This document shows, one piece after another, positions 2,491 to 63,298 of a stretch of 64,000 bases of DNA. The notes under the pieces were generated by a model. That model saw only the letters and a list, made by a program, of their open reading frames with translations. It was not told the DNA's origin and made no database searches. The translations under genes and the position numbers were made by a program. The stretch is taken from NCBI GenBank assembly GCA_963720545.1, contig OY970399.1, positions 3,776,001 through 3,840,000 on the forward strand, in the 5' to 3' direction. Numbering within the stretch: position 1 is the stretch's first letter; each line of letters opens with the position of its first letter. Source of the DNA: an uncultured Acidobacteriota bacterium. GTDB lineage: Bacteria > Acidobacteriota > Vicinamibacteria > Fen-336.

Positions 2491-2538
2491 AGAGCGTCCT
2501 CGACTTGGCCGCTGGCGCAGGATTAAGATCCGCCACGC

Positions 2539-6795: not shown

Positions 6796-6816
6796 CCACC
6801 GCAGGCAGGAGGGCTC

Positions 6817-12153: not shown

Positions 12154-12407
12154 CGGTCCGCGTGACCATCGACGGCCGCGCGGTGGAAGCAGCCGCCGGG
12201 ACGAGCGTCGCGGCTGCGGCGTGGAACGCCGGCGTCGTGAGCCTGCGGCAAGCCGTGGCCGGCGAGCCGCGCGGCGCCTGGTGCGCCATGGGCGTGTGCT
12301 TCGAGTGCCGGGTGCGCATCGACGGTGTGCGGCACCAGCGCGCGTGCATGGAGTTGGTTCGCGAAGGCATGGTCATCGAAACCGGGGCCGGCGAGAGCGA
12401 GCCATGA
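12150..12407 (+). CDS. 2Fe-2S ferredoxin-like gamma subunit of D-hydroxyproline dehydrogenase
   Basis: MTVRVTIDG...CAMGVCFECRVRIDG...AC (CxxGxCxxC..C); ATGA overlaps at both ends. Confidence 0.85.
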   Translation: MTVRVTIDGRAVEAAAGTSVAAAAWNAGVVSLRQAVAGEPRGAWCAMGVCFECRVRIDGVRHQRACMELVREGMVIETGAGESEP

Positions 12408-13669: not shown

Positions 13670-13673
13670 CGGC

Positions 13674-15867: not shown

Positions 15868-15917
15868 GGAAAAACTGAGGGCCCTTGCGCCCTCGCCGCG
15901 CGTACACTCGCCTCACC

Positions 15918-17166: not shown

Positions 17167-17937
17167 TTGAATTCGCCGTGGTTCAAGCCGACGCCCGGTG
17201 AGGCCTCGAGCGGCCCCCTCCTCATCTGTTTCCCGCACGCGGGCGGCGGCGGAGCCGCGTTTCGCACCTGGCCGCGGCACCTCGCCGGCAAGGCGCGGGT
17301 GCTGGCGCTCCACCCGCCGGGCCGGGCGTCGCGCCTTGGCGAGGATCCGCTGCGCCGCATTGGCGACTCGGCCGAGTCGATCGCCGACGCGCTGCTGCCG
17401 CTGACCCACGAGCCCTATGTTTTCTTCGGCAACAGCATGGGCGCGCTCGTCGCCTTCGAGACGGCGCGCGCCTTGCGCGCCCGCGGCGCCCGCTCGCCGG
17501 CGCACCTTTTCGTCTCGGCGCGCCGCGGACCGCGCATCGCCGAGCTCGACCCGCCAATGGCCGCCCTCGACGACGCGCAGTTCGTCGCCGAGGTGCAGAA
17601 GCGCTACGCGGCGATCCCCGCCGAGGTGGCGCGCGAGCCCGAATTGATGGAACTGCTGCTGCCGGCGCTGCGCGCCGACTTCGAGGCGCTCGAGACCTAC
17701 CAGTACGCCGCCGCGCCGCCGCTCGACTGTGCCATCACCACCATCGCCGGCGAAACCGACGCGCGCGCCACGCTCGCGCTGCGCACGCCGTGGCGCGACG
17801 AGACGCGCGGCGCCTTCCACCAGGAGACGATGCCGGGCGGACACTTCTACTTCGCCTCGCCGGCCGCCGAGCAGCCGGTGCTCGCGTGGTTCGCCGGCAG
17901 GCTTGCTGCGCTCCGGGTCGCCGAGATCGTTTCGTGA
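17167..17937 (+). CDS. Type II thioesterase
   Basis: LICFPHAGGG, GNSMG nucleophile elbow, LPALRADF, GGHFY; TTG start after GGAGG. Confidence 0.92.
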   Translation: MNSPWFKPTPGEASSGPLLICFPHAGGGGAAFRTWPRHLAGKARVLALHPPGRASRLGEDPLRRIGDSAESIADALLPLTHEPYVFFGNSMGALVAFETARALRARGARSPAHLFVSARRGPRIAELDPPMAALDDAQFVAEVQKRYAAIPAEVAREPELMELLLPALRADFEALETYQYAAAPPLDCAITTIAGETDARATLALRTPWRDETRGAFHQETMPGGHFYFASPAAEQPVLAWFAGRLAALRVAEIVS

Positions 17938-20900
17938 GCCGCGCCGCGCCGGAGCCCATCGCCATCGTCGGCATCGGCTGCCGTTTTCCGGGCGGCGCTT
18001 CCTCGCCCCGGGAATTCTGGGATCTGATGCGCGGCGGCGTCGACGCGATCGGCGAAGTGCCGCGCGAGCGGTTCGACCTCAGCGCGCTCTACGACGCACA
18101 GCCGGCGACGCCGGGCCGCGTGATGTCGCGCTTCGGCGGCTTCCTCGCGGGCGTCGAGGACTTCGACATCGACTTCTTCCACATGTCGCCGCGCGAGGCG
18201 GCGTCGCTCGACCCGCAGCAGCGCCTGCTGCTCGAGGTCGCGTTCGAGGCGCTCGAGGACGGCGGCCAGCCACTGCACCGCTGGCACGGCCGTTCGGTGG
18301 GTGTCTTCGTCGGCATGTGGCTGAACGAATACGAAGCGCGCATGTTCCGGCGCAACGAGGACATCGAGTTCTACATGACGACTGGCACGGGCCGCTATTC
18401 GGCGTCCGGCCGCCTGTCGAACCAGTTCGGCTGGACCGGACCGAGCATGACGGTCGACTGCGCCTGTTCATCGTCGCTCGTCGCCATCCACCTGGCTTGC
18501 CAGAGTTTGCGCCTCGGCGAGTCCGAGATGGCGCTCGCCGGCGGCGCCAACGTCATCCTCGAGCCGAGCATCACCATCGCGTATTCGCAGTCGCGCATGA
18601 TGGCGCCCGACGGCCGCTGCAAGTTCGGCGATGCCCGGGCGGACGGCTACGTGCGCAGCGACGGCGCCGGCGTCGTGGTGTTGAAGCGGTTCGCGGACGC
18701 GCAGGCGGCGGGCGACCCGGTGATCGCGGTGATCCGCGGCAGCGCGGTCAACAACGACGGCGACAGCAGCGGCTCGTTCGGCACGCCCGGCCGCGCCGGC
18801 CAGGAAGACATGCTGCGCAAGGCCTACAGCAATGCCGCCGTGGATCCGGCCGCTGTCTGGTACGTGGAGGCGCACGGCACCGGTACCCGCGCCGGCGATC
18901 CGGTCGAGATCGGGGCGCTCGGCGCCGTGCTCGGCGCCGGCCGCGCCGCCGCCAACCCGCTCCACGTCGGTTCGGTGAAGACCAACATCGGCCACACGGA
19001 AGGCGCTGCCGGGGTCGCCGGATTGATCAAGGCGGCGCTGGCGGTGCAGAGCGGCGTCATTCCGCGCAGCCTCAATCTCGTCTCGCTCAACCCCGAGATC
19101 CCGTGGGACAGCCTGCGCGTGGCGGTGGCGCGTGAAGAGGTCACGGCGGAACGGCCGGGGCGCATCGCCGGCGTCAGCTCGTTCGGGATCGCCGGCACCA
19201 ACGCACACGTGGTTCTCGAGCAAGCGCCGGCGCGTCCCGAAGCCGCTGCGGACCTGGGCGCGGCGCAGCGACCGCTGGTCCTGCCGCTGAGCGCGGCAAG
19301 CCCCGGGGCGTTGCGCGCGGCCGCGCAGCGGATGGCAGCGCACCTGCGTTCGGGAACTGCACCTCTGGAAGACGTGGTGCACACCTCCGGCAGCCGGCGC
19401 AGCCACCTCGAGCATCGCCTTGCGGTGGTCGGCGCCGATGCCAAAGCGCTGGCCGAGGGCTGCGACGCGTACGCGGCTCACGAAGAGCGCCGCGGCGTCG
19501 TGTCGGGATCGGCCGCGCCAGGCGCGCCCGGCGGCGTGGCCTTCGTCTTCCCGGGGCAGGGCGGACAATGGCCCGGGATGGCGCGGCAACTCGCCGGCGC
19601 CGAGCCGGTGTTCGCGGCGGCGCTCGCCGAATGCGATGCGGCGATTGTCGCGCGCGGCGGCCCCGCCGTGCTCGAAACCCTGGCAGCCGCCGATGCCGCG
19701 GCGCGCTTCGAGCGCATGGACGTGGTGCAGCCGGTGCTGTTCGCCGTCCAGGTTGCGCTGGCGCGGCTGTGGATGGCGCTCGGCGTCACGCCCGCCGCGG
19801 TGGTCGGCCACAGCATGGGGGAAGTGGCAGCGGCGCACATCGCGGGCATGCTGTCGCTGCAGGACGCCGCCGCGGTGATCGTGGACCGCAGCCGCCTGCT
19901 GCAGACGGTCAGTGGGCGCGGCGCCATGGCCGTGGTCGAGCTGCCGTTTGCGGAGGCAGGGGAGGCGGCACGGGCGGCAAACGGCCGGCTCTCCGTGGCG
20001 GTCAGCAACTCCGAGCAATCGACGGTGCTGTCCGGCGATCCGGAAGCCGTCGATGCCCTGATCGCGCGGCTCGAAGCGGCCGGTGTCTTCTGCCGCCGCG
20101 TGAACGTGACGGTCGCGGCGCACAGCGCGCAGATGGACCCGCTACGCCCGCAGCTCGTCGCCGGGCTGGCCGGCCTCGGTGCGCTGGCACCCGCGGTGCC
20201 GTTCGTCTCGACGGTCACGGGCAGCGTGCTCGAGATGCCGGCGGACGCCGACTATTGGGGCCGCAACCTGCGCGAGCCGGTGCGCTTCGCCGATGCCGTG
20301 CGCAGCGTGCGCGCGCTCGGCATCGATGCCTTCGTCGAGATCGGGCCGCACCCGGTGCTGCTGCACGCGCTGCGCGCCGGAGCGGCGCCGCCCGCGATCT
20401 CGGCGGTGCCGTCGGCGCGCCGCGAGGAGAACGAGAGCGAAACGCTGCTCGAGAGCTACGGCGCCTTGTACGCCGCAGGAGCGCAGGTCGACTGGAGCCG
20501 CCTGCAGCCGCGCGGCCGCCACACTGTCCTGCCGGCATATCCGTGGCAGCGCGAGCGCTTCTGGATCGAGAACAACGCCCAGCCCGCATCGGCGCCGGCG
20601 CCAGCGGCGGGCGTCGTCCACACGACCGAGTGGCGCGAACAGGCCCTGGCCGGGGCCACCGCCCCTGCGGGCCAGCGTGTCGTCATCTTCGCCGGCCAGT
20701 CGGTGTTCTGCGGCCTGCTCGCGGAGGCGCTGACGCGCCTTGGTGCCAGCGTCGAGATGTTGACGGCAGGCGGCGAGGCGCTGGCGTCCGAGGCGGCTGC
20801 GCGCGAAACGCTCGCGAGGGTGATGACACCGGGAGTCGTCACTCATCTCGTACACAGCGGCGGCCTCGACGCCGCCGGCGACTGGGAGGAAACGCTGGCA

Positions 20901-22456
20901 CAGGGGCCGCTCAGCCTGCTGCACCTCATGCAGGCGGTCGTCGCGTCGAGCCGCGAAAGCCACGCCCGTCTCGTCGTCCTGGGCCGTGCGGCTGACGCGG
21001 CCGTGTTCGCTCGTGCGGCGGCGCTCAACGACGGACTGGCCCGGGCCATCGATGCCGAGCACCCCGCGTTGCGGGTGCGCAGTTTCTTCCTCGGCGGGAC
21101 GCCGGGGCTCGCCGACGCCCAGGCAGTCGCACGGTCGATTGGCGCGGAAGGCGGCGTCGCGTTCGACAATCAGGTGCGGGTCACCGGCGGCGTCACCGCC
21201 GTGAAGCGGCTGGTTCGCACGCCGGCGCCGGCGCCGGTCGGGGTGATACCCGGACGCGACGGCACCTTCCTGATTACCGGCGGGCTCAGCGGCGTGGGCC
21301 TCCTGACGGCGCGGCACCTGGTCCTCGCCGAGGGTGTCCGCAGTCTCGCGCTCGCGGGTCGACGGCGCCCCGATGATGCCGCCCGTGCCGAAATCGCGCG
21401 TCTCGAGGACGCTGGTGCGCGCGTCCGGACGTTTTCGGCCGACGTCGCCGATCGCGCTGCCGTGGCCTCGCTGCTCACCGCGATCGACGCCGAAGGGCCA
21501 CCGCTCACCGGCGTGATCCACGCGGCAGCGATCCTCGACAACAGGATGCTCGCCGCGACCAGCGACGACTCGCTGCGCCAGGTGGCCGCGGCGAAGGCGC
21601 TCGGCGCCTGGCACCTCCATGAACTCACGGCAGGGCGTCCGCTCGACGTCTTCCTCATGTACTCGTCGGTGACGCCGCTGCTCGGCGTGACGATGCACGG
21701 CAACTACGGTGCGGCCAACACGTTCCTCGACGGCCTGGCCACGCATCGGCGCGCCCGCGGCCTGGCTGCCGCGGTCATCGCGTGGGGGCCGTGGCACGGA
21801 GTCGGTTTTGCCGTGGCGGGTGGAAACCGTCTCGCCGCATTCGGCCTGCGCGGCCTCACCGAGGCCGGCGGGCTGGATCTCCTGGGCCGCCTGCTGCGCA
21901 TGAACCTCGTGTATGCCGCCGCTGTCGAGGTGGATTGGCGTTTGTTCGCGGCAACCTTCCGCGACGCTGCAGCGTGGCCGATCTTCACCGACGTCGTGGC
22001 CGCGGGCGAGCCGCAGCGCGCAGCGGCAGCGCCGGCCGCGTCCGCCGCTGCGCTCAGGGCACAGGTCGAAGCGCTTGCGCCCGGCGCCGCGCGCCTCGAA
22101 TTTCTCGAAGACCGGGTCTGCGACATCCTGGCGGCGGTCGTGCGCCGTGGCGCGAACCAGCTCGACCGCGACAAGCCGTTCCGGGCCCTCGGTGTCGACT
22201 CGCTCATGGGCCTGGAACTGCGCAACCGCCTCGCCGCCGTTTTCGGAGTCGCGTTCCCCGCGACGCTCACCTTCAACTTCCCGAGCGTGCGCGCGCTCGC
22301 GCCCGAGCTCGCGCGCCGCGCAGGAATCGCCGTCGCGGCTGCCGGTGAAGCCATTGACGCGGCGGCCGAGAACGCCGAGCTCGAAGGGATGCTCGCCGAG
22401 CTCGAAGGCATGTCCGAGGACGATGCGCGGCTGAAGGCGGCGGGCAAGGGCGCGCG

Positions 22457-22460
<4 letters not shown>
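17934..22460 (+). CDS. Type I PKS module 1: KS-AT-KR-ACP
   Basis: GTG start at 17934 (EPIAIVGIGCRFPG). KS: DCACSSS, HGTGT, NIGH. AT: RMDVVQ, GHSMG, VAAHS. KR: GGLSGVG, HGNYGAAN. ACP: GVDSL. Confidence 0.92.
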
Positions 22461-33149
<10,689 letters not shown>

Positions 33150-33153
<4 letters not shown>

Positions 33154-46648: not shown

Positions 46649-46667
46649 TGCGAAGGGAGAGCGCAGC

Positions 46668-52600: not shown

Positions 52601-53120
52601 GGTTGCCGTGCTGCCCATCGACTGGCCGGCGTTCCGGCAGCGCCTGGGCGACGCCGTGCCCGCGTTCTTTGCGGAACTGACCGCACAGCCGGCGCAGGCG
52701 GCGCAGGCTCCGGCGAGCGAGCGCAACCTGCGCCAGCGGCTGCAGGCCGCGGCGCCGGAGGAGGTGCTTGCGCTCATCACGGCCTTCGTCGCCGAGCAGG
52801 TCGCCCGGGTCTTCGGCATCGATCCGGGCCAGCCGCTCGATCGCCAGCAGCCGCTCGCGGATTTCGGTCTGGACTCGCTCATGTCGGTGGAACTGCGCAA
52901 CCGCCTGCAGGCGGGTTCCGGTAAAAGCCTGCCGACGACGCTCGCCTTCGACCATCCCACGATAGATGCGCTGGCCGCGTTTCTCGCGGCCTCGCTGCGC
53001 GAGGAAGCGCCGCCGGCCAGCGTCCCGCCCGCGGCCGCCATCGAGCAACAGGTCGAGAAGCTGTCGGACGACGAGGTCAGCGCGATGCTGAGCAAGCTGA
53101 TGGCCGCGCGCGAGGAATGA
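46668..53120 (+). CDS. Type I PKS module 6: KS-AT-DH-ER-KR-ACP
   Basis: KS: DTACSSA. AT: GHSVG, HAFH. DH: HLILDNVIYP. ER: LNFRD, HAAAGGVG. KR: LDD, GQGNYAAAN. ACP: GLDSL. RBS-like AAGGGAGA upstream. Confidence 0.94.
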   Translation: MSDETGSAARRALLQEALARLDELQGKLAASERSRREPIAIVGLGCRFPAGGNDPAAFWQVLRDGVDGVSEVPPERWSLDEFYDPDPDAPGKTYTRFSAFLDHMPDRFDAAFFGISPREASGMDPQHRLLLEVAWESLENAGIAPTDLAGTDASVFLGIASIDYAAMQGRIGGVEMLDTYHASGVAHAIAAGRISYTLGLQGPCLAVDTACSSAMVAIHLAVQNLRAGTTGLAIAGGINLVLGPEGAILTSRARMLSVDGHCKTFDAAADGYVRGEGCGLVVLKRLSDALAAGDDIRAVIRGSAINQDGRSAGLTAPHGPSQEAVIRAALDDAGVTPGEVSYVEAHGTGTSLGDPIEVKALGAVFGPSHSAAQPLIVGGSKSNIGHLEAAAGAAGLAKVLLMLQHGEVPPNLNFRNPNPLIPWAELPIRVPTQVLPWVRGAAPRIAGISAFGFSGTNAHMVVEEAPARAIVPAAAVRPAADAAHPQLLTLSARDQTALRELAGRFAAAVQSDPAPSLADVCFTANTGRAQFAHRLAVSAATPAELAQRLAAFAAGQQAPGVVHGHAPPKKPRIAFLFTGQGSQYAGMGRGLYASQPAFREALDRCAAVLDEELGRPLLPLLFDDGTALNQTAFTQPALFALEYSLAAMWRSWGIEPGALVGHSVGEYVAACVASVFSLEDGLRLIAARGRLMQALPPGGTMLAVMSDEATVAAAIAAHAASVSIAALNGPANTVIAGAAGPVQEIAQALATRGIETKPLVVSHAFHSPLMEPMLDEFEKVAARVAYSAPRMVVIANATGAPAAGGDLQTAGYWRRHVRGAVRFADSIVALREQGYRQFLEIGPKPTLAGMARQCWPADGPAASWLPSLRTGRNDSQQVMESLAAAYVQGASVDWAAVAGSEHGRRIALPTYPFQRTRYWFTLPPSRPRTEAGALHPLLTKRIRSAALADTVFETSLSAEWPAFLRDHLILDNVIYPATGYIEMALAAARQLGAGPHALESFSIHAPLILPERSQDAVAVQLVAAAAAGGATAFRILSAPGGDKDAPWTLHATGTLRCLDRAQAAPPAPAEWRAGTARAADEYYELLRERGATYGPAFRGIAQLARGDGEAWARIELPAEAGEPGAYLLHPAALDAAFQVIGAALPPAIEAALGDAVFMPVDMRRLVALAPLPRQFQVYGTVVAAPGGETLSAELALFDTSGAPLALVQSVSLKRASRKALLAALQHGEQDWFYEQAWRAQALAAEAPAPAGSCLLLLDERGLGEQVAELLEGSGVRCARVARGDDVAAALAAAQRGTEPLRVVSLRSLDADTPLAASVAALDVVQALTTAGAPQTRLFIVTRGAQPAAGGAASLAQAPVWGLGRVAAQEHPELHTVLFDLDPAAEPGDAASLAAELTAGSGESQVALRRGERLVARLVRSRSQRNAPLEPYRAEITSRGVLDNLVLRPLVRTALAPGEVEVEVQASALNFRDVLNVLGMYPGDPGAPGTECAGVVSAVGEGVSVLQPGDSVMGIAAHAFDSHALARAELLVRKPDGLTFAEAAGVPIAFLTALYGLQNLAGLKPGARVLIHAAAGGVGLAAVQIARKHGAEIFATAGSAEKHAYLKDLGVQHVMSSRTLDFADEVLALTGGAGVDIVLNALADDFIPKSLSALAADGCFLEIGKRGIWSAEQVRAVRPNARYFPYDLSEVLSNDVPLWRAMLESVLADLESGALQPLPVTAFPAAAIVDAFRFMAQAKHIGKVVVSHRAIGPLVRPDAGYLVTGGLSGLGLETAAWLVAEGARHVALVARSAPGAAAQEPLAQMRAAGANVHVFAADISSATEVARVFAEAAAAMPPLRGVVHSAGVLDDGTLRQQTAERFATVMATKVDGASHLDHETRGLPLDFFVMFSSVAAVFGAPGQGNYAAANAFMDALAHARRAAGRCALSINWGGWAEVGMAARLAARDHRQREQAGIDLITPERGMRAFAHALAGDAAQVAVLPIDWPAFRQRLGDAVPAFFAELTAQPAQAAQAPASERNLRQRLQAAAPEEVLALITAFVAEQVARVFGIDPGQPLDRQQPLADFGLDSLMSVELRNRLQAGSGKSLPTTLAFDHPTIDALAAFLAASLREEAPPASVPPAAAIEQQVEKLSDDEVSAMLSKLMAAREE

Positions 53121-56100
53121 GCGGAACGGGCACGGAAGGATTGACAGCGGCGCAGAAGCGCGCGCTGCTCGAGCGCCTGCTGAAGGACGAAGCGGGCGCC
53201 CAGCCGCTCTCCGCGGGGCAGAAGGCCCTGTGGTTCCTGCACCAGCTGGCGCCGCGCAGCAGCGCGTACAACGTTGCCTGGACCGCCTGGGTGCGTTCGC
53301 CGCTGGACGTCGCCGCGTTGTCGCGCGCGCTGCGCCGGCTCAGCGAGCGCCACGAGATGCTGCGGGCGCGCTTTACGACGCGCAACGGCGAGCCCATGCA
53401 GCGCTTCGCGCGGCCGGACGATCCGGTGATCGGGGAGCACGACGCCAGGGGACTGAACCGCGAACAGCTGGAAAAGCTCCTGGTGGCCGCCAACGACCAG
53501 CCGTTCGACCTCGTCAACGGACCCGTGTTTCGCGCCGACGTCTGGCACCTCGGCGCGGCGGAACACGTCGTCCAGTTGAGCGTGCATCACATCGCATTCG
53601 ACGGCTGGTCGGTCGCCATCGCCGTGCCCGACCTGATGGCGCTCTATGGCGCGGAAGTGTCCGGCGCGGCCGCGGTGCTGCCGCCGGCGCCGGCGAACTT
53701 TGCAAGCTACGCGGCGTGGCAGCGCGAGCTGGTGGACGGCCCTGCCGGGCAGCGGATGTGGGAATACTGGAAAGAGCGGCTCGGCGGGTCGCTGCCGGTC
53801 CTGGCCCTGCCGACCGACCATGCGCGGCCCCCGGAGCCGAGCTATGCGGGCGGCAAGGTTTCGTTCCTGCTCGGCGAGGAGGAGACGCAGCGCCTGCGAC
53901 AGCTGGCGCGCGACCAGGGCGCAACCTTGTTCATGACGGTGCTGGCGGTTTTCGGCGTGCTGCTGCACCGCTACACCGGCCAGGAAGAGGTGCTCATCGG
54001 CTCGCCGACAGCGGGCCGCAGCCGCACCGATTTCGAGGGCATCGTCGGCTATCTCGTGAACCCGGTGGTGCTGCGGTTGTCCACCGCCGGCGTACCGAGC
54101 TTCGCCGCATATCTCGCGCAGGTGCGCGAACGCGTCGTCGAGGCGCTGCGCAACGCCGACCTGCCGTTTCCCCTGCTGGTGCAGAAGCTGAACCCCGAAC
54201 GCGACCCGAGCCGTTCGCCGCTCTTCCAGGTGGACTTCAACATGCTGCGAGCCATCCAGCTGGGACCCGATGGCGGCGGAGCCGCGCAGGGTGGTTCGCT
54301 CGCGCAGCCGACCTTCGGGCGCCTGGTTCTCGAGAGCTTCAGCATCCCGCAGCAGCAGGGCCAGTTCGATCTTGGATTCGAGATCATGGACAACGGCCGT
54401 GAACTCGCCGCCAACCTGAAATACGCCTCCGATTTGTTCGAACCGGCCACGGTCGAACGCATCGCTGGTCACCTGAAACAGCTGGTCACTTCGGTGCTGG
54501 AAGCGCCCGACCGGCAAATCTCGCAGCTGCGGATGTTGACCGCGGCAGAAGAGCAGGCGATCCGCGGGTTCAATTCCACGGCGCGGGTTTATCCGGACGA
54601 GCGCCCGATTCACAGGGGTATCGAGGACCAGGCGCGTGCCGCGCCGGACGCGGTGGCCTTGCGGTTCGAGGGGCAGTCGCTGACCTATTCGCAGCTCGAC
54701 CGACAGGCAAACGGCCTGGCCCTCCGGCTGCGCGCCGCCGGTGTCGGCGCGGGCGTTCTCGTCGGCATCGTCGCCGAGCGATCGTTCGAGATGGTCGTCG
54801 GCCTGCTTGCGATCCTGAAGGCCGGCGGCGCCTATGTGCCGTTCGACCCGACGTATCCGCCCGATCGGCTTGGCTTCATGTTCGAGGACACGCAGGCGCA
54901 AGTGATCCTGGTGCAGCCGAGACTCGAGGGTGCGCTGCCGGCGCACGCCGCGCGAGTTCTCGAGCTCGCTGCCGAGGACGGCGCTGATGAGGCGCCGCCC
55001 GGCGACGAGTCGCTGGACAGCCTCGCCTATGTCATCTTCACCTCCGGCTCGACCGGCCGGCCCAAGGGGGCGATGAATGCGCACCGGGGGATCCTCAACC
55101 GGCTCTCGTGGATGCAGGAGGAGTATCGCCTGCAGCCCGCGGACCGTGTGCTGCAGAAGACTCCCTACAGCTTCGACGTCTCGGTGTGGGAATTTTTCTG
55201 GCCGCTGCGCGAAGGCGCGACGCTCGTCATCGCGCGTCCAGACGGCCACAAGGATCCGGCCTATCTCGCCCAGCTGATCCGCGACGAAGGGGTGACGACG
55301 CTGCACTTCGTGCCCTCGATGCTGCAGGCGTTCGTCGAGGAGGAAACCGCCCGGTCGTGCAGCTCGGTGAAGCGCGTGATCTGCAGCGGCGAGGCGCTGC
55401 CTCACGACCTGCAGGAGCGATTCTTCGACGTCTTGCCCGCGTGCGAACTGCACAATCTCTACGGTCCAACGGAAGCGGCGGTGGACGTGACCTATTGGGC
55501 GTGCCAGCGTAACGATGGCCGCAGCAGCGTCCCGATCGGCCGTCCCGTCGCCAACACCCAGATCCATCTTCTCGACGCGCACGGCCAGCAGGTGCCGGTG
55601 GGGGTGCCGGGAGAACTGTGGATTGGCGGCGTTCAAGTGGGCCTTGGATACTGCAACCGCAACGAACTGACGGAGGAGCGCTTCGTTCCCGACCCGTTCC
55701 GCGATCAGCCAGACGCTCGTATGTACCGCACCGGCGACCTTGCGCGCTATCGGTCGGGCGGCGAAATCGAGTACCTCGGTCGCACCGACCACCAGGTCAA
55801 GATTCGCGGCTTCCGCATCGAGCTTGGTGAGATCGAGGAGCGCCTTCTCGCCCACACCCATGTCGAACAGGCGGTGGTGGTCGCGCGTGACTTTGGTAAC
55901 GCTGACCGCCGGCTGGTCGCATTCGTCACCGGGGGGGCGAACCAGGCCGTCGACGTGACCGCTCTCAAGAGTCACCTGCTCGAGACGCTGCCAACGTACA
56001 TGGTGCCCACAGCGTTCGTGGTCCTCGACTCACTACCGCTCACCGCAAGCGGCAAGGCCGACCGCAAGGCGCTGATGGCCATGGACGTCGCGGGTCCGGC

Positions 56101-59100
56101 GGCTGACGTCCCCGAGGTGCCGCTCACTACCAGGACGGAGGAGATCGTCGCGGGCATCTGGTCGGAAGTCCTGGGCACGCCGGTCACGTCCGCGGCCGCC
56201 GATTTCTTCGCCCTTGGCGGCCACTCGCTGAGCGTTGCGCAGGTCGCGGCGCGTTTGCGCAAGGCCTTGGGCACGACCATTCCCTTCCGCGAAGTGTTCG
56301 CGGCGCGTGACCTGGCAGCGCTCGCGGCGCGCATTGACGCGACGCGCACCGAAAGCAAGGAGCGCGACTCGAGCGCCGGCCCGGCGTCCGATGCCGACAC
56401 GGGCGAGACCCCGCTGTCTTCCGTGCAGCAGCGGCTCTGGTTCCTCAACGAACTCGGCGGCGACACGGCCGAATACGCGATGGTGGGCGCCATCGAGCTT
56501 GCGGGAAGCCTGGACCGGACGGCGCTCGAAGGCGCGCTCGCGCAACTCGTCGTACGCCACGAGTCGCTGCGCACGATCTTCCGCGCACCTGGCGGCGATC
56601 CGGTACAGGTGATTCAGCCTGCCGGCCATTTCGTCCTCGAAATGGAGGACGTGCCGTCGGAGGAGGCCTTGCGTTCGCGGATGAAGAGCGCCGCGACGCG
56701 GATATTCGACCTCCAAAGCGGGCCGCTGTTTCGCTGCGTGCTCTACCGGACGGCGCCAGACCGGCACTACCTGCTGCTGATTCTGCATCACATCATCGCC
56801 GACGGCTGGTCGATCGGCGTCCTGCTGCGCGAATTGGCCACGCTCTACACCGACACGGTCCTCGGCAAGCCGTCGTCGCTGCCGGCCCCGCTGCTCCAGT
56901 ACCGCGACTATGCGCGGTGGCAGCGTGAGCAGGCCGGCGACGGTGACTACGGCGGCGCCCTGGCGCGCTGGGTGGCACGCCTGGACGGCGCGCCGCGCGA
57001 ACTGGAATTGCCGTCGGACCGGCCGCGGCCGCCTGCGGAAAGCCATCGCGGTGCAACGCTGCCGTTCCGCCTGCCGATGGAGCTTGCCGAGGGCCTGCGC
57101 ACCCTGAGCCGCCGGCAGGGCGCGACCCTGTTCATGACCTTGCTGGCGCTCTTCGACACGTTGTTGTGGAAATACACGGGCCAGCAGGATCTCGTCGTCG
57201 GCACGCCGGTCGCGAACCGCCCGCGGGTCGAGCTCGAATCGCTCGTCGGTGTGTTCGTCAACACGCTCCTGCTGCGGACTCGGCTCGAACCGTCGCTGAC
57301 CTTCGCGGAGGCGCTCGGGCGGGTTCGCGACACCACCCTCGACGCGCTGGGCGACGAGCAGGTGCCGTTCGAACGGCTGGTCCAGGCACTGCGCCCGGAG
57401 CGGGACCTGGGGCGCAATCCGCTGTTCCAGGTGATGTTCGTACTGCAGAACATGCCGCAGCGCCCCGTCGACCTCCCGGGCCTGCAGCTGCGCGCGCTCG
57501 ATGTCGATCGCGGCGCCGCGCAGCTCGACCTGACGCTCTACATGGTGGAGACCGCCGAGGGCTTGTCCGGTTTCGTGGAATACGCGACCGACCTCTTCGA
57601 CGCCGACCGCATCGCGCGGATGACCGGGCATTTCGAGCAGCTCGCCCGCGCGGTGGTCGCATGGCCGGCCGCACGCCTTGGCGAACTGGACATGCTGACC
57701 GAAACCGAACACGGGAACGTAGCGTCGTGGAATCGGACGGCGCGCCCGGAGCCGACGGCTTGCGTGCACGATCTCGTTGCCGCGACCGCGGCGCGACAGC
57801 CAGATGCGACCGGGCTCGTTTTCGGCGATGCGTCGCTCACGTACTCCGAGCTCGAGACGCGTGCGGCGGCAATCGCCGGCCGCCTCGCAGCGCTCGGGGT
57901 GCGGCCCGGAAGACTGGTCGGCGTCCTGCTGGAACGCGGCCCGGACATGGTCGCGGGGGTCCTCGGTGTGTTGAAAGCGGGCGCCGGCTACGTACCCATG
58001 GATCCCGCGTTCCCATCGGATCGCCTCGCCTACATGCTGGAGGATTCCGGGGCGAGCGTACTGCTGACGCAGGAGTCGCTAGCCGGCAGCATCGCAACGG
58101 ACGCGAGGGTTCTCGTGCTCGAGCGGTTCGCGGACGGCGACCCGGTGGCTGTGCCTGTGGCGGCGACACTCGACGATCTCGCCTACGTCATCTATACGTC
58201 GGGCTCGACGGGCAAGCCGAAGGGCGTCGCCATCGGCCACCGTTCGCTGGTGAATCTCCTGGCGTCGATGCAGGAAGAGCCCGGCTTCACTGCAGCCGAC
58301 AGCCTGTTCGCGGTGACGACGCTTTCCTTCGACATCGCCGGGCTGGAGCTGTACCTGCCGCTGATCGCGGGCGGACGCATCGTGCTTGCGAGCCGCGACG
58401 ACGTTGCCGACGGCAACGCCCTCGTCGAACGCCTGGAAGCGTCGCGAGCCACGGTCATGCAGGCGACGCCCGCCACCTGGCGGCTGATGCTGGAAGCCGA
58501 CTGGAAGGGAAGTCCAGGGCTGAAAGTCCTGTGCGGCGGTGAAGCGTTGCCGCGCGACCTCGCGGATGCGCTGGCGCCGCGCGTCAAGGAACTGTGGAAC
58601 GTCTACGGCCCGACCGAGACCACCATCTGGTCGTCGTGCGAGCGCGTGAGGGTTGCACCGGGACCCATCGCCATCGGCCGGCCCATCGCCAACACCAGCC
58701 TGCTGATCCTCGATCGCTCAGGCGGACTCGCACCCGTCGGCGTCCCTGGAGAACTGCACATCGCCGGCATGGGCCTCGCGCACGGCTATTGGCGGCGCGA
58801 TGACCTCACCGCCGAGCGCTTCATTCCCGACCAGGTGAGCGGACAGCCGGGAAAGCTCTACAAGACGGGCGACCAGGCGCGCTGGCTGCCGGACGGCCGC
58901 GTCGAGTGCCTGGGCCGTCTCGATCATCAGGTGAAGGTGCGCGGCTACCGCATCGAGCTGGAAGAGATCGAGATCGCGCTGCGCGCTCATCCGGATGTCG
59001 ACCAGTCGGTCGTGGTTGCGCAGAAAGGCGACGGCGGCGACGACCGCCTGATCGCCTACCTCACCGAGGTTTCCGGACGGCCGGCGAACGTCACCGAGTT

Positions 59101-59575
59101 GCGTGCGCACTTGCGGAAGACGCTGCCGGCCTACATGGTGCCGTCGGCATTCGTCACGCTCGACCGCCTGCCGCTGACTGCCAACGGCAAGATCGACCGC
59201 AAGGCACTGATTGGAATCGAGTCCGCCCGTGCGGTTCGCGGCGAGCCGCTGCCGCCGCGGACGCCGGCCGAGCTGTTGGTGGCGCAGGTGTGGCGAGACG
59301 CCCTCAAGGTGCCGTTGGTCGGGCTGCAGGACAATTTCTTCGACCTCGGCGGCCATTCGCTGCTGGCGATGCGGGTGCTTGCCGAGATCGAAAAACTCAC
59401 CGGCACCAGGCTGCACCCGCGCGACATCATCTTCCAGAACCTTGAACAGCTGGCAAAAGCCTGCGCTGCCCGGGTGAGCGAGCCGCCGCTGGGCGAGCCT
59501 GCGGCGGACACCGACGGCAAGCTGCGCGGCTTGCTGCGCCGCTTGCGGCCCGGTGCCGCGGGCGGCAAGCGATGA
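53117..59575 (+). CDS. Bimodular NRPS: C-A(Ser)-PCP-C-A(Gly)-PCP, no terminal TE or R domain
   Basis: C domains HHIAFDG and HHIIADG. A domains with TSGSTG.PKG and YGPTE; manually extracted specificity codes DVWHISLVDK (Ser-type) and DILQLGVIWK (Gly-type). Two GGHSL PCPs. The protein ends about 75 aa after the last PCP serine. Confidence 0.92.
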   Translation: MSGTGTEGLTAAQKRALLERLLKDEAGAQPLSAGQKALWFLHQLAPRSSAYNVAWTAWVRSPLDVAALSRALRRLSERHEMLRARFTTRNGEPMQRFARPDDPVIGEHDARGLNREQLEKLLVAANDQPFDLVNGPVFRADVWHLGAAEHVVQLSVHHIAFDGWSVAIAVPDLMALYGAEVSGAAAVLPPAPANFASYAAWQRELVDGPAGQRMWEYWKERLGGSLPVLALPTDHARPPEPSYAGGKVSFLLGEEETQRLRQLARDQGATLFMTVLAVFGVLLHRYTGQEEVLIGSPTAGRSRTDFEGIVGYLVNPVVLRLSTAGVPSFAAYLAQVRERVVEALRNADLPFPLLVQKLNPERDPSRSPLFQVDFNMLRAIQLGPDGGGAAQGGSLAQPTFGRLVLESFSIPQQQGQFDLGFEIMDNGRELAANLKYASDLFEPATVERIAGHLKQLVTSVLEAPDRQISQLRMLTAAEEQAIRGFNSTARVYPDERPIHRGIEDQARAAPDAVALRFEGQSLTYSQLDRQANGLALRLRAAGVGAGVLVGIVAERSFEMVVGLLAILKAGGAYVPFDPTYPPDRLGFMFEDTQAQVILVQPRLEGALPAHAARVLELAAEDGADEAPPGDESLDSLAYVIFTSGSTGRPKGAMNAHRGILNRLSWMQEEYRLQPADRVLQKTPYSFDVSVWEFFWPLREGATLVIARPDGHKDPAYLAQLIRDEGVTTLHFVPSMLQAFVEEETARSCSSVKRVICSGEALPHDLQERFFDVLPACELHNLYGPTEAAVDVTYWACQRNDGRSSVPIGRPVANTQIHLLDAHGQQVPVGVPGELWIGGVQVGLGYCNRNELTEERFVPDPFRDQPDARMYRTGDLARYRSGGEIEYLGRTDHQVKIRGFRIELGEIEERLLAHTHVEQAVVVARDFGNADRRLVAFVTGGANQAVDVTALKSHLLETLPTYMVPTAFVVLDSLPLTASGKADRKALMAMDVAGPAADVPEVPLTTRTEEIVAGIWSEVLGTPVTSAAADFFALGGHSLSVAQVAARLRKALGTTIPFREVFAARDLAALAARIDATRTESKERDSSAGPASDADTGETPLSSVQQRLWFLNELGGDTAEYAMVGAIELAGSLDRTALEGALAQLVVRHESLRTIFRAPGGDPVQVIQPAGHFVLEMEDVPSEEALRSRMKSAATRIFDLQSGPLFRCVLYRTAPDRHYLLLILHHIIADGWSIGVLLRELATLYTDTVLGKPSSLPAPLLQYRDYARWQREQAGDGDYGGALARWVARLDGAPRELELPSDRPRPPAESHRGATLPFRLPMELAEGLRTLSRRQGATLFMTLLALFDTLLWKYTGQQDLVVGTPVANRPRVELESLVGVFVNTLLLRTRLEPSLTFAEALGRVRDTTLDALGDEQVPFERLVQALRPERDLGRNPLFQVMFVLQNMPQRPVDLPGLQLRALDVDRGAAQLDLTLYMVETAEGLSGFVEYATDLFDADRIARMTGHFEQLARAVVAWPAARLGELDMLTETEHGNVASWNRTARPEPTACVHDLVAATAARQPDATGLVFGDASLTYSELETRAAAIAGRLAALGVRPGRLVGVLLERGPDMVAGVLGVLKAGAGYVPMDPAFPSDRLAYMLEDSGASVLLTQESLAGSIATDARVLVLERFADGDPVAVPVAATLDDLAYVIYTSGSTGKPKGVAIGHRSLVNLLASMQEEPGFTAADSLFAVTTLSFDIAGLELYLPLIAGGRIVLASRDDVADGNALVERLEASRATVMQATPATWRLMLEADWKGSPGLKVLCGGEALPRDLADALAPRVKELWNVYGPTETTIWSSCERVRVAPGPIAIGRPIANTSLLILDRSGGLAPVGVPGELHIAGMGLAHGYWRRDDLTAERFIPDQVSGQPGKLYKTGDQARWLPDGRVECLGRLDHQVKVRGYRIELEEIEIALRAHPDVDQSVVVAQKGDGGDDRLIAYLTEVSGRPANVTELRAHLRKTLPAYMVPSAFVTLDRLPLTANGKIDRKALIGIESARAVRGEPLPPRTPAELLVAQVWRDALKVPLVGLQDNFFDLGGHSLLAMRVLAEIEKLTGTRLHPRDIIFQNLEQLAKACAARVSEPPLGEPAADTDGKLRGLLRRLRPGAAGGKR

Positions 59576-60429
59576 ACGCACGGCATGCCGCGTTCGCGGC
59601 GCTAGGCGCCGGCCTTTGTTTTGGCGCGGTGGAATGGGCCGCCGAGCATTTTCAACGGGACTACAGCGCCTGGCAGGTGATATGGACTCGCTACGGAGTG
59701 CACCTCGCCCTCATCGGTGCCGCGGCAGCCGCGCGCGGCGTGAATCCGCTGCGCACCGGCCGGCCGGGCCTGCAGGTGTTGCGCAGCATGCTGATGGTCG
59801 CGATGCCGGGCTGCTTCCTGATCGGCGCGCATTACGCACCCGCGCCCGGGGTGTGGTCGCTCTTCTGGATCACCCTGCTGTTGTCGGCCTGGCCCGAATC
59901 GCAATGGCGCGGCGCCGATGTATGGCGGCGAGGGGCGCTGCACCTGGGAGCGCTTGCCGGCATGTGGCTGGTGGTACAGCCGCTGCACGCGCTCCGCTGG
60001 CCGACACTGGCGCCGGGCCTGGCGATGGGCGCGTCCTTTGCCGGTTACCTGGCGCTCACGCACGTGCTGCGCGCTGAGACTGCCTTCTCCCGGCTCTTCT
60101 ATACGGCGCTTGGCGTGTTCGTGGTGCTGACGCCGTTCGTGGCGCCCCGCTACCTGCTGCCGTCCGGCCACGACTGGCTGGTGTTCCTCTTCATTGCCGT
60201 GTTCGGGCTGGCGTGCCTGTACTTGCTCGATCTTGCCCTCGACGCGGTGCCTGCTGCCCTAGTGAGTCCCTACCTGCTCATCACGCCGGCCGCGGCCGCG
60301 GTCCTGGAGATCCGCGACGGCGGCAGGCCCGGCGCCGCCTCGCTATTCGGGGTGGTGCTGCTGGCAGTCTGCCTCTGGCGGGCGGTGCCGCGCGCCGCGC
60401 CTGCCGTGGCGCAGCGCAGGGAAGCCTGA
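59572..60429 (+). CDS. EamA/DMT family membrane transporter
   Basis: Multiple TM helices; QVIWTRYGVH, LRTGRPGLQVLRS and ALVSPYL motifs typical of DMT permeases; ATGA overlap with the NRPS stop. Confidence 0.75.
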   Translation: MNARHAAFAALGAGLCFGAVEWAAEHFQRDYSAWQVIWTRYGVHLALIGAAAAARGVNPLRTGRPGLQVLRSMLMVAMPGCFLIGAHYAPAPGVWSLFWITLLLSAWPESQWRGADVWRRGALHLGALAGMWLVVQPLHALRWPTLAPGLAMGASFAGYLALTHVLRAETAFSRLFYTALGVFVVLTPFVAPRYLLPSGHDWLVFLFIAVFGLACLYLLDLALDAVPAALVSPYLLITPAAAAVLEIRDGGRPGAASLFGVVLLAVCLWRAVPRAAPAVAQRREA

Positions 60430-60441
60430 GCCGGGGCTCGC

Positions 60442-61347
60442 CTAGCCTCGCGTCGCGTGCGGTATCGACCGCGACTTGATGTCGATCACGGCGGCGCTCC
60501 TGGGCACTGTCGCGCGCGTCGATGCCAGGACCGAGTCGACTACCCAGTCGCGCACCAGCGACACGAAGCGGCGCTGGTTGTTGAGCAGCGTGAAAGTGTG
60601 GTCGGTGTCGTGCAGGTGCACGGCCTGGATGTGCTTGCCGTTGGGCCAGAACGGCACCTTGCCACGCAAGCCGTGGTTGAAGTGGTGCCAGGATGAGCTA
60701 CCGCCGCTGAAGCCGAGCAGCACCGGGCTGCGCCGTTCGACCAGCGTGCGCAGCGCGGCCACGAACGCGCGGTAACTCGGAAAGATGGACGTCTCGGCCG
60801 ATTGCTGGGTCATGGCAGTGGCCTTCACGGCCGTCAGGACGAGGCTGCGACCGGAAAGCAGCCGCACCCAGCTGCGCAGCTTGAAAACCTGGCGGCGCGC
60901 GTTGAGCAGCATGGACCAGGGCGTCGGTATGTTGTAGCCGTCGACCGTGGCGACGCCGACGATGCGCGCGTCGCGGCTGGCGGTGCGAATGGCCATGTCC
61001 GCGCCGGAGCAGATGCCGAAGGTCACGAAGCGATCGATGCCGCGCGAGGACAGGTGGTCGAGGGCTTCGCCGGCGTCCGCCAGCGCCTGCTCGACGAACG
61101 ACAGCATCGCACCTTCGGCGCGCGGGCTGTCGCCGATGCCGGAAAAGTCGAAGCGCAGCACGGTGACGCCGAGCGCCGCCAGCTCGCGAGCCAGCGCGAC
61201 GTGGATGCGTGCCGGCCCGGTGCGGTGCAGGACGCCAGCGTTGAACAGGACGACGCCCAGGTTCTCGCGGTGCGCGCCGGCCGGCGGCTCGGTGAGGATG
61301 CCCACCAGCGACTTGCGCGGTCCGAAAACGAAGGCGCTCTCGTTCAT
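60442..61347 (-). CDS. Alpha/beta-hydrolase-fold protein with a Cys at the nucleophile elbow (GICSG)
   Basis: LRFDFSGIGDS, FGICSGA, and C-terminal DHTF catalytic-His motif. Confidence 0.85.
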   Translation of the reverse strand: MNESAFVFGPRKSLVGILTEPPAGAHRENLGVVLFNAGVLHRTGPARIHVALARELAALGVTVLRFDFSGIGDSPRAEGAMLSFVEQALADAGEALDHLSSRGIDRFVTFGICSGADMAIRTASRDARIVGVATVDGYNIPTPWSMLLNARRQVFKLRSWVRLLSGRSLVLTAVKATAMTQQSAETSIFPSYRAFVAALRTLVERRSPVLLGFSGGSSSWHHFNHGLRGKVPFWPNGKHIQAVHLHDTDHTFTLLNNQRRFVSLVRDWVVDSVLASTRATVPRSAAVIDIKSRSIPHATRG

Positions 61348-62138
61348 GCTGCGCGCTCCCGCAGCCGGGTGACGAACAGTTCGAGGATCTCGAGAGGCAC
61401 CAGGGTGCGGTCCATGTCGTCACGCTTCAGCCAAACCGGCAGTGCCGCGGCTCCCGCCAGCTCCACCGGGACTCGCAGGGTTTCGAAACGCGCCTGCAGG
61501 GCGGCGGCGTGCGCCGGCTGGTGGCTGCCGAGCAACAGCACGCGCTGCGCGGCGCACGCCGGCAGCGTCGTGAGGTCGAGCGCCTCCAGCTGAGCGCGCA
61601 GCTCGGCAGGCAGCGGCGCGCCAAGGACCTCGCTCGGCGGATTGTCGGGCACGTACCCGCGCGGCCGCGGCCGCGCCTTCACAAGCGCTTCGTGCCGCGC
61701 CGCGAGCTCCGCGACGAACTCGCGGCCGTTCACGATCGGGTCCCAGAGCAGCAGCTTGTCGGCGTTCAGCCCGCGGCTTGTGGCAATGGCCGCGATGCTG
61801 GCGCCGAGGCGCAGGCCGAGGATCGACGGGCGCGCGATGCCGCTGGCCTCGCGCAGTTCCTCGTAAGCCAGCTTCACGTCTTCGAGCCACAGGTCGATGC
61901 GTCCGTCCGCGGCATCGCCCGAGGAATCGCCGCAGCCATAGAAGTCGAAGCGCAGCGCGTGCACTCCCGCCTCGCTGAGGCGGTGGCTCAACTCGCGAAA
62001 TGCGCGGTGCGAGCGCATGTATTCGGCGCCGAACGGGTAGCAAAGGAGCACGGCACCGCGGGCGCCGCGCCCGCTTGCCGCAGGCTCGTAAGCGCCAAAG
62101 AGCGGCCTTTGGTTGGTGCCGAAATAGAAGGGTCGCAT
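61344..62138 (-). CDS. Alpha/beta-hydrolase-fold protein with Arg at the nucleophile position (GLRLG), probably non-catalytic
   Basis: PFGAEYMRSHR, LRFDFYGCGDS, GLRLGA, LLLWDP; ATGA overlap with the partner gene. Confidence 0.85.
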   Translation of the reverse strand: MRPFYFGTNQRPLFGAYEPAASGRGARGAVLLCYPFGAEYMRSHRAFRELSHRLSEAGVHALRFDFYGCGDSSGDAADGRIDLWLEDVKLAYEELREASGIARPSILGLRLGASIAAIATSRGLNADKLLLWDPIVNGREFVAELAARHEALVKARPRPRGYVPDNPPSEVLGAPLPAELRAQLEALDLTTLPACAAQRVLLLGSHQPAHAAALQARFETLRVPVELAGAAALPVWLKRDDMDRTLVPLEILELFVTRLRERAA

Positions 62139-62416
62139 GCCTGAAGTGTGCGGTTCCGCTCTTGTTACGCGTCGCGCCGACGGGGAGGAATGAGTGCGCG
62201 GAGATTAACAGTCGGGTCGGAACCGGTCAATGGATCGGACTCGCTCTCTCGCCGTAGTCGCGCGCTGAAACCGCTGCCTGTTGCCTCTTCGCGAAAGGCT
62301 GATTCTCGCGAGATTAGGGCACTTCGTGCGCCTGCCCGGTGAGTCAGCCCACAGCGGAACCGGGCTGTGTTCCGATTTCTCAGCTTTCCCTCCAAAAATG
62401 ACGAGTCACGCGTGGC

Positions 62417-63292: not shown

Positions 63293-63298
63293 CAACCC

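Follow-up and report, generated by a model that had tools for sequence, protein, structure and literature searches.

The subject of this work is a biosynthetic gene cluster in a 64,000-nucleotide stretch of DNA from an uncultured Acidobacteriota bacterium (GenBank assembly GCA_963720545.1, contig OY970399.1, positions 3,776,001 to 3,840,000). This whole stretch is called the window, and coordinates refer to it. At 17167-62138 it carries an assembly line of six one-module polyketide synthase (PKS) genes and a two-module nonribosomal peptide synthetase (NRPS) without a loading module or a terminal thioesterase (TE). We propose that the cluster is an intact member of a cross-phylum family, that the line likely primes itself, that a pair of hydrolase-like proteins, hyd2 and hyd1, likely unloads it, and that its predicted product is a methyl-branched 6,6-spiroketal acyl-Ser-Gly. 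For this explanation as a whole, drawn from sequence, we consider right and wrong about equally probable. In the proposed route the acyltransferase (AT) of module 1 would load methylmalonyl; its ketosynthase, KS1, would decarboxylate this to propionyl, hold it on Cys178 and join it to another methylmalonyl unit. Modules 1-6 would extend propionyl by colinearity into a dihydroxy-keto, methyl-branched chain, and both delta-hydroxyls could close on the ketone to give a spiroketal or hemiketal. The NRPS would add Ser, then Gly. Finally hyd1, with its Cys-Asp-His residues, and hyd2, presumed to be catalytically dead, would remove the chain from the final carrier and hand it to water or a small acceptor.

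Gene, domain and motif calls were made from the listing of open reading frames (ORFs), Pfam and motif scans. PKS domains are ketosynthase (KS), AT, ketoreductase (KR), dehydratase (DH), enoylreductase (ER), methyltransferase (MT; cMT for C-methyltransferase) and acyl carrier protein (ACP); NRPS domains are condensation (C), adenylation (A) and carrier (T). Eleven uninterrupted genes span about 45 kb:

17167-17937, + strand: TEII, type II editing thioesterase (Pfam Thioesterase, E 1e-43)
17934-22460, + strand: PKS1, KS-AT-KR-ACP (Pfam and motifs)
22457-28765, + strand: PKS2, KS-AT-DH-ER-KR-ACP, malonyl AT (YAFH), full reduction
28762-33153, + strand: PKS3, KS-AT(QGFH)-cMT-ACP, without KR, hence a ketone with one or two alpha-methyls
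33150-40784, + strand: PKS4, KS-AT(HAFH)-DH-cMT-ER-KR-ACP, KR with His2285 for Tyr; alpha-methyl, full reduction
40781-46648, + strand: PKS5, KS-AT(HAFH)-cMT-KR-ACP, KR with His1692 for Tyr and an LDD motif; alpha-methyl-beta-hydroxyl if the His-KR is active
46668-53120, + strand: PKS6, KS-AT(HAFH)-DH-ER-KR-ACP, full reduction
53117-59575, + strand: NRPS, C-A(Ser, DVWHISLVDK)-T-C-A(Gly, DILQLGVIWK)-T
59572-60429, + strand: EamA/DMT-family membrane transporter (Pfam EamA, E 2e-6)
60442-61347, - strand: hyd1, alpha/beta-hydrolase fold, GICSG elbow, putative Cys113-Asp136-His250 triad; TIGR03100-like, below cut-off
61344-62138, - strand: hyd2, alpha/beta-hydrolase-like, GLRLG elbow, Arg110 at the nucleophile site; TIGR03101-like, below cut-off

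Adjoining genes from TEII to EamA share 4-nt overlaps; the sole exception is PKS5/PKS6, with a 19-nt gap. The module order is KR / DH-ER-KR / MT / DH-MT-ER-KR / MT-KR / DH-ER-KR. The KS Cys/His/His, the AT Ser, the DH His/Asp, the S-adenosylmethionine (SAM) motif of the MTs and the carrier Ser are present. Thus each PKS module has its own KS, AT and ACP with catalytic residues and C-A-T modules follow, as in cis-AT modular PKS-NRPS lines. ORF, Pfam and motif scans agreed with an earlier, sequence-only reading of this DNA, which had described six one-module PKS genes and a two-module NRPS with intact KS and carrier residues and no frameshifts. The lack of a loading module and of a terminal thioesterase, also reported there, was borne out: PKS1 opens at its KS with no domain before it, and the NRPS stops about 30 residues past its last carrier without a TE, reductase (R) or terminal C domain.

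The assembly appears sound. In public sequencing runs that belong to other studies or samples, contigs bridge seven gene junctions (TEII/PKS1, PKS1/2, PKS3/4, PKS6/NRPS, NRPS/EamA, EamA/hyd1 and hyd2/outside), with the caveat that the best-matching runs may be the source sample itself. Among the contig pieces listed none bridged PKS2/3, PKS4/5, PKS5/6 or hyd1/hyd2. In the two stretches compared, which excluded 35901-45000, the indels listed within genes were compensating +1/-1 pairs without a net frameshift. Soil metagenomes contain parts of the stretch, and protein P0028 of another assembly is 98% identical to PKS5. The bridged junctions and a module order that is kept in other genomes speak for an intact assembly over an error joining unrelated genes. 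On the other side, no RNA dataset was among the 20 public runs listed for the stretch, which counts against our explanation. A promoter and terminator scan of 59300-62500 gave 0 promoters and 4 terminator-like sites where 1.8 +/- 1.4 are expected by chance and was uninformative.

The cluster had been called an orphan. In the sense of unique this did not stand, because the same core recurs elsewhere: four other genomes, G457, G956, G637 and G1253, have all six modules in the same order, and six more have part of them. The four with the full order come from four phyla. The line thus belongs to a family of cis-AT PKS-NRPS systems that crosses phyla and conserves a core of six modules. G457, a Betaproteobacteria record, has TEII, the six modules, C-A-T-C-A-T, hyd2, hyd1 and a phosphopantetheinyl transferase (PPTase) on one strand, with several frameshifts. 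G956 is from the window's class, G637 from the same phylum as the Anaerolineae genome G460, and G1253 from the same phylum as the Corallococcus genome G968; these three keep the order and add a DH in module 5. In G460 and G461 one more module stands at the start and the last module is without ER; in G204, G144, G458 and G459 only part of the core is seen, with contigs cut or modules changed. As in the window, a TEII gene stands before the first PKS gene in G457, G460, G461, G204, G956 and G1253. The relatives were found through hyd1, PKS3 and KS1 queries, so the set is biased to these features. Whole-protein identity to G457 is 43-55%. In a quick KS tree of 44 rows the window KS3, KS5 and KS6 paired with their G457 counterparts with SH-aLRT (approximate likelihood-ratio test) supports of 96, 96 and 95, KS2 and KS4 did not pair, and all first KSs formed one long-stemmed clade (SH-aLRT 100).

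The peptide tails differ. The window has Ser-Gly and G457 a Thr-type module followed by Gly; other relatives have one or two NRPS modules with or without a further PKS module, and the commonest code of the last NRPS module is Gly-type. G+C is 0.683 in the window NRPS gene, 0.717-0.735 in the six PKS genes and 0.687 in the genome. The low value of the NRPS gene and its Ser-type first A domain are consistent with an exchanged tail. In G204 (C58:32547-33496) a PPTase gene between TEII and the first PKS is split over two frames, either a broken gene or an assembly error. None of the housekeeping genes flanking the window cluster was seen next to the related clusters read.

How is a line without thioesterase unloaded? 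The best NCBIfam matches are TIGR03100 for hyd1 (E 4e-24, 85.5 bits against a cut-off of 168.45) and TIGR03101 for hyd2 (E 4e-29, 102.1 bits against a cut-off of 202.75). The two genes are adjacent and have Cys and Arg at the elbow, as in TIGR03100/TIGR03101 hydrolases. General scans of the window genes matched no exosortase model; a search aimed at exosortase A/PEP-CTERM was not made. We examined 80 hyd1 loci. In 76 of them hyd2 lies directly upstream, in 60 of these 76 a carrier domain is found within 600 bp upstream of hyd2, and 4 loci are carrier-hyd2 fusions. When longer proteins were sought, five of the 27 hits were NRPS or carrier fusions with a C-terminal hyd2; most others are of the size of a hyd2-hyd1 fusion (four were read). 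The residues are well kept: Cys113 of hyd1 in 79/80, an acid (Asp/Glu) after the next strand in 66/80, His250 in 68/68 covered, and Arg110 of hyd2 in 77/78 relatives. A TE-like hit was obtained in 4 of the 80 hyd1 loci, the window TEII being the sole TE query. In the core relatives G457, G458, G460, G461 and G637 the pair comes immediately after the last carrier. In that place G956 has a fused TE and G144 a terminal C domain, and neither genome has a strong hyd1 match. This natural swap of hyd pair, TE and C domain is the best evidence for a role in release. The sequence data argue, with good confidence, that the pair unloads the product from the last carrier; hyd1 is likely the catalytic off-loading subunit and hyd2 likely its non-catalytic, carrier-facing partner.

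Several points speak against this assignment. The window pair is inverted, convergent to the operon. It shares 35% and 37% identity with the G457 pair and lies on separate FastTree branches, and co-evolution of the pair with the PKS core was not supported by FastTree. The window pair is thus not specifically related to that of G457, which indicates that the tail was exchanged. In G1253 the core is present, yet the queries used detected neither a hyd1 match nor a release domain. Apart from these points, a structure model of hyd1 (mean predicted local distance difference test, pLDDT, 73.5) matched only generic esterases at up to 21% identity. In the open-access literature we did not find the hydrolase pair described as a release unit. 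Close hyd1 relatives include Acidobacteria-labelled records. Loci L079, L094 and L131 have two hyd1 copies or two hyd2/hyd1 pairs, and in L094 and L131 each pair stands behind its own carrier domain. The terminal TE-like domain of G956 (C21 near 170750-172100; L258:10749-12101) has a Cys elbow, GPCMG, read by eye.

The acceptor of the chain is a separate question. The earlier suggestion of a conjugated unit may still hold, because some relatives adjoin glycosyltransferase and flippase genes; but such neighbours are missing from the window cluster and from two close relatives, one of which ends in an ordinary fused thioesterase. In the corresponding alternative the same line would operate with hyd1/hyd2 as a transacylase that puts acyl-Ser-Gly on a sugar, a lipid-linked glycan or an exopolysaccharide. 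We regard this as unlikely, though worth serious consideration. Chloroflexota members of the PKS family carry glycosyltransferase, flippase and amidotransferase genes on the upstream side; in G637 and G460 these encode a GT4 glycosyltransferase, a Wzx-type flippase and an asparagine-synthase-like protein. A strong hyd2 match was obtained in seven genomes from the window's own family or order; all seven were read, and six have sugar-polymer genes beside the hyd pair, and the window genome's own second NRPS/PKS-hyd pair lies in a polysaccharide locus. A Cys nucleophile suits acyl transfer. A TIGR03100-like gene is located within the Bcam1330-1341 exopolysaccharide cluster, and only a quality-control role was proposed for a TIGR03100 protein (PMC3584217). 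On the other hand, flanking sugar genes are absent in the window, G457 and G956, and G956 closes with an ordinary fused TE. Thirteen polysaccharide-gene queries hit in only 13/80 hyd1 loci (10/45 for loci of at least 15 kb), a lower bound since the queries were narrow. We place free release somewhat ahead of glycan attachment. EamA homologues occur inside the related clusters G458, G460, G461 and G637, and EamA may export the product.

Next we consider how the chain starts. PKS1 has no upstream domain and no N-terminal docking helix. Its KS has Cys178 (motif DCACSSS) with W129, R154 and N274, its AT is methylmalonyl-type (RMDVVQP/VAAH) and its KR keeps Tyr; VASH is a named methylmalonyl AT variant in PMC7327777. 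KS1 differs from the other five KSs of the line at 16 positions common to all six first KSs aligned. Arg154 is present in 7/7 first KSs and, among 120 homologous proteins, in 24 of 30 non-Cys KSs; Asn274 is present in 7/7 first KSs, 17 of the 30 non-Cys KSs but just 2 of the 223 remaining Cys KSs. A quick tree with 83 rows placed KS1 and six relatives that are likewise first modules as sister to 13 N-terminal KSs with Arg for Cys (SH-aLRT 99), and the 34-row group holding both also included 12 KSQ domains, in which Gln replaces Cys (SH-aLRT 98). Compared with KSQ, KS1 has the N-terminal position and the descent from loading KSs, and it has Cys178 in place of Gln. KSQ decarboxylates (methyl)malonyl-ACP to the starter, according to PMC11350588 and PMC3943440.

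We then surveyed the KS1 clade in 88 loci (80 metagenome, 8 genome); 12 duplicates were dropped, leaving 76 distinct members. All 76 open their gene without an upstream domain (KS, AT, carrier, A and C queries), 73 keep the Cys (68 by script, 5 by eye), and 50/50 typed ATs are VASH/VAAH. A KR is present in 29 of 34 complete modules, the other five being KS-AT-ACP. Weak self-priming is possible for ordinary first KSs. Self-priming with propionyl is likely here because KS1 groups with loading KSs and because all 76 relatives begin their gene. Since KS1 keeps its Cys and PKS1 carries a KR, loading and first extension are apparently merged. Judged from these sequence comparisons, KS1 would decarboxylate methylmalonyl to propionyl, accept it on Cys178 and extend it with a further methylmalonyl; we consider this reasonably likely. 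It is weakened by the five KS-AT-ACP-only modules and the three members without Cys, which fit pure loading. Furthermore, that Cys-to-Arg KSs act as decarboxylases is an inference in its own right, and the KS trees are quick, midpoint-rooted searches with SH-aLRT support only, in which 35 Cys KSs were drawn at random from about 210. No account of a Cys-retaining loading-type KS was found in the open-access literature.

KS1 might instead be primed externally by a fatty acyl-ACP, an acyl-CoA or TEII acting as acyltransferase; R, the group at the start of the chain, would then be larger than ethyl and the product lipid-like. KS1 indeed has an ordinary Cys-His-His set, the nearest single solved KS is the elongating CurL, and a TEII or PPTase gene is found within 3 kb upstream in 22 of the 50 clade loci with room. 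But genes for FAAL, a free ACP or KSIII are missing from the cluster, just 4 of those 50 loci have a carrier upstream on the same strand, each time as the end of a preceding NRPS, and KS1 clusters with loading-type KSs and has their Arg and Asn. External priming is therefore improbable. Still less probable is that PKS1 is purely a loading module. KS1 would then decarboxylate methylmalonyl-ACP and pass propionyl to PKS2, KR1 would be idle, and the chain would be one unit shorter, with no first hydroxyl and no spiroketal. KS1 does share its lineage with KSQ-like domains, and the exceptional clade members just mentioned point that way, as does the atypical MHGNY of KR1 where GQxNY is usual. However, KR1 retains the NADPH motif, Lys, Ser, Tyr and Asn, most clade modules have a KR, many with DH and ER in addition and with motifs intact where checked (G460/G461), and nearly all members retain the Cys.

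In the genome samples the KS1 clade occurs in 7 of 301 from its own class (window included), 3 of 301 from the phylum of G460 (G460 included) and 2 of 351 from the phylum of G968. The 15 best plasmid records included no clade member, and none covering the KS1 signature stretch reached 60% identity. The clade also opens unrelated loader-less PKS-NRPS lines in G028, G834 and G1215 (L255-L257, L262-L265, L276-L280), two of them in genomes with a hyd pair; the KS1-type start module is portable between lines. The thirteen N-terminal KSs in KS-(AT)-ACP units with Arg for Cys (xDRxSS) form a clade apart from KSQ (P0154, P0157, P0158, P0160, P0165, P0167, P0169, P0171, P0172, P0183, P0195, P0216 and P0263) and possibly represent a separate 'KS-Arg' loading type. 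The entry 7zma was rejected as nearest structure to KS1, as its score was summed over two KS domains; per domain CurL is best. Nothing on starters was found in PMC9491710, which describes 7zma. Homologues sought with KS1 were mostly multi-KS proteins, with no close relative of known name among them, and served only as a source of non-Cys KSs.

Among the extension modules AT1 is methylmalonyl-type and AT2-6 are malonyl-type, AT3 being atypical (QGFH). MT3 and MT5 matched CurJ (E 5e-55 and 3e-69) and DisA best in the Protein Data Bank (PDB), with no PKS O-methyltransferase listed, and in a motif scan MT4 has the same SAM motif and catalytic His. An O-methyltransferase reading, which would mean a beta-methoxyacrylate as in myxothiazol, was ruled out because the PDB matches are C-methyltransferases.

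The KRs of PKS4 and PKS5 are unusual: they have GQSNH where active KRs have GQxxY, a His for Tyr that the sequence-only reading did not record. By the usual rule a KR without the catalytic Tyr is dead. All other catalytic and NADPH-motif residues are kept; only the Tyr is replaced. Among the 120 best homologues from C-methylating modules of many phyla (P0028-P0147) His occupies this position in 118, with Lys in 120/120, Ser/Thr in 120/120 and Asn in 115/120. In a separate set of 77 KRs from MT-free modules Tyr was found in 77 and His in none. Both DH catalytic residues are intact in 79 of 82 His-KR proteins with a DH. Such DHs would be pointless beside a KR that does not work; therefore the His-KRs are probably functional, those of PKS4 and PKS5 included. 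By sequence, the His is a signature of KRs in C-methylating modules. Three points tell against it: the homologue set was found by a His-KR query, two of the 120 MT-module KRs have Tyr, and the module-5 KRs of G204, G458, G460, G461, G637 and G956 are Tyr-type without LDD. We found no paper on His-KRs in the open-access literature.

By colinearity modules 1-6 would very probably produce Et-CH(OH)-CH(Me)-CH2CH2-CO-C(Me)1-2-CH2-CH(Me)-CH(OH)-C(Me)1-2-CH2CH2-CO-, a prediction that needs active His-KRs. R is predicted to be ethyl and the acyl part to have C19-C21. A lipid-like product, as suggested earlier, was not supported: the place of KS1 in the loading-type clade speaks for a C3 starter and for an acyl part of C19-C21, not for a fatty acid. 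The Ser and Gly assignments rest on the A-domain codes. The best single-A-domain PDB neighbours are Txo, FscH and EntF for the first A domain and AB3403 for the second; their specificities fit. The earlier colinear formula was reproduced in its methylmalonyl AT1, malonyl AT2-6, C-type MTs (as far as tested) and Ser and Gly A domains; it had left R open, missed the 1,9-dihydroxy-5-ketone spacing and explained neither start nor release.

Modules 1 to 5 would leave a hydroxyl, a reduced unit, a ketone, a reduced unit and a hydroxyl in turn. Each hydroxyl would lie four carbons (delta) from the ketone, the geometry of a 6,6-spiroketal precursor. On balance we expect the chain to close to a 1,7-dioxaspiro[5.5]undecane spiroketal, or else at least to a tetrahydropyran hemiketal, as predicted from the deduced chain. 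For a propionyl start and release by hydrolysis the calculated [M+H]+ values are 471.307, 485.322 and 499.338 for the spiroketal with 0, 1 and 2 extra methyls, and 18.011 more for the open form. A ketone with delta-hydroxyls on both sides fits the colinear prediction for the window and G457 and is consistent in the split G144 cluster; it depends on KR1 and the His-KR5. The first hydroxyl is kept by a module 1 without DH in the window, G457, G956, G637 and G1253, and the equivalent module of G460 and G461 has a DH with Ser in place of its His. The second hydroxyl is less certain. Module 5 is without DH in the window, G457 and G144. It has a DH in G204, G458, G460, G461, G637, G956 and G1253, with His and Asp intact in the four aligned (G204, G458, G460, G461). 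In those relatives this DH could turn the second hydroxyl into an alkene, in which case no spiroketal would form. Together with the lack of a spirocyclase gene, or of any unassigned gene, within the cluster (the genome outside the window was not searched for spirocyclase families), this argues against the spiroketal. If module 5 of these relatives builds a gem-dimethyl carbon, elimination is impossible and the hydroxyl is retained; if not, an alkene would arise and ring closure would go no further than a hemiketal. The DH-bearing module 5 of most relatives has xASH/xAAH ATs. The module-3 ATs of most relatives are likewise xASH/xAAH, which points to a gem-dimethyl next to the ketone; the window AT3 is malonyl-like, and one or two methyls are possible.

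How does the line compare with known systems? Like curacin-type cis-AT PKS-NRPS it has one module per gene, embedded C-methyltransferases closest to CurJ, a KS closest to CurL and a CurL-like KS-AT linker; it differs in having no GNAT, AT or FAAL loading unit and no terminal TE, and in its module order. With the KSQ loaders GfsA and PlyT it shares an N-terminal KS with a methylmalonyl AT and the KS lineage, but KS1 retains the Cys and PKS1 carries a KR. The acyl chain of polyoxypeptin, of the azinothricin family, yields a tetrahydropyran hemiketal. Its PlyTUVW line, as described in PMC3943440, is similar in a propionate start followed by a module, a malonyl DH-ER module and a KS-AT-ACP module before the NRPS; it has a true KSQ loader, only three extensions, no C-methyltransferase and a TE end. 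The predicted dihydroxy-ketone precursor is common to the 6,6-spiroketal polyketides avermectin, ossamycin/oligomycin and reveromycin/spirofungin. The predicted core resembles the 3,9-dimethyl-1,7-dioxaspiro[5.5]undecane of spirofungin and tautomycin, as well as the ring of milbemycin A4 with its ethyl and methyl groups and the ring segment of aplysiatoxin with its gem-dimethyl. Spiroketals form from assembly-line dihydroxy-ketones in avermectin and, as proposed, in ossamycin, according to PMC6490886. The pathways named here are actinomycete or cyanobacterial, several with the spirocyclases AveC, RevJ, SlnM or the putative OssO/OlmO, whereas the window cluster has no spirocyclase gene and ends in a dipeptide. 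Exosortase A-associated TIGR03100/TIGR03101 hydrolases are the best family match of the hyd pair and show the same pairing; here the scores are sub-cut-off, the pair flanks a megasynthase and no polysaccharide genes adjoin.

Among the 120 best homologues each of PKS5 and KS1 (240) no characterised pathway protein was named, only automatic labels such as McyG and MxaC, and in the open-access literature (MIBiG and subscription journals lay outside the scope) we did not find the cluster described. That it is already characterised under another name, as the few names in the homologue tables would permit, or is an assembly artefact is highly improbable, given these tables, the plasmid records below 60% identity, the independent contigs over seven junctions and the order conserved in other genomes. 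The cluster family thus appears to be undescribed; it is of the broad curacin-type cis-AT PKS-NRPS kind and departs in start, His-KRs and release.

Tentatively, the sequences point to an undescribed family of spiroketal-peptides in uncultured bacteria of at least four phyla, with a self-priming KS clade, His-KRs and an Arg/Cys release unit in place of a thioesterase; this hydrolase-fold unit may transfer the chain to an acceptor. The core is kept over four phyla while peptide tail and release unit are swapped, which suggests a selected scaffold, and spiroketals are common among bioactive polyketides. If true, a self-priming first module would explain many loader-less metagenome clusters and offer engineers a one-module propionate start, and an active His-KR would correct rules that predict such domains to be dead. 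The exchange of TE, C domain and hydrolase pair opens a direct route to the function of the long-unexplained TIGR03100/03101-like pair. Because it is 45 kb, compact and frameshift-free, unlike the clusters of G457 and G1253, the window cluster is a practical expression target.

The genome is a single contig of 4.09 Mb, 94.8% complete. A PPTase, reported as missing, is indeed absent from the window, but the genome carries two ACPS-family genes, and a PPTase encoded elsewhere would activate the line in trans. An MbtH protein was not found in the genome either, at the stated completeness. The genome has two methylmalonyl-CoA mutase matches. A second thioesterase-less line with its own hyd2/hyd1 pair is located at G000:C1:3205000-3241600 (L034, L037). 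It comprises an NRPS of 2117 aa, a KS-AT-ACP-aminotransferase PKS, a C-A-T NRPS, a cupin, a thiamine diphosphate (ThDP) enzyme and a PPTase, and sits among Wza-, Wzc-, deacetylase-, glycosyltransferase- and flippase-like genes (names assigned by eye; the Pfam scan of this locus covered six other genes). The PPTase of this second line likely activates the window line, and its hyd pair could cross-talk. In the window, 8565-14564 holds in a row genes for an aldehyde dehydrogenase, an FAD oxidoreductase (DAO), a sarcosine-oxidase-alpha-like protein and a dihydrodipicolinate synthase (DHDPS) family protein, which we take to resemble a hydroxyproline catabolism operon. The flanks at 487-8568, 15004-17048 and 62417-63295 contain housekeeping genes; the flank genes are those for pyruvate dehydrogenase E1 alpha, a large NAD-glutamate dehydrogenase, DUF885, a second EamA and MscS. 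Immediately 5' of TEII lies a metallo-beta-lactamase-fold gene.

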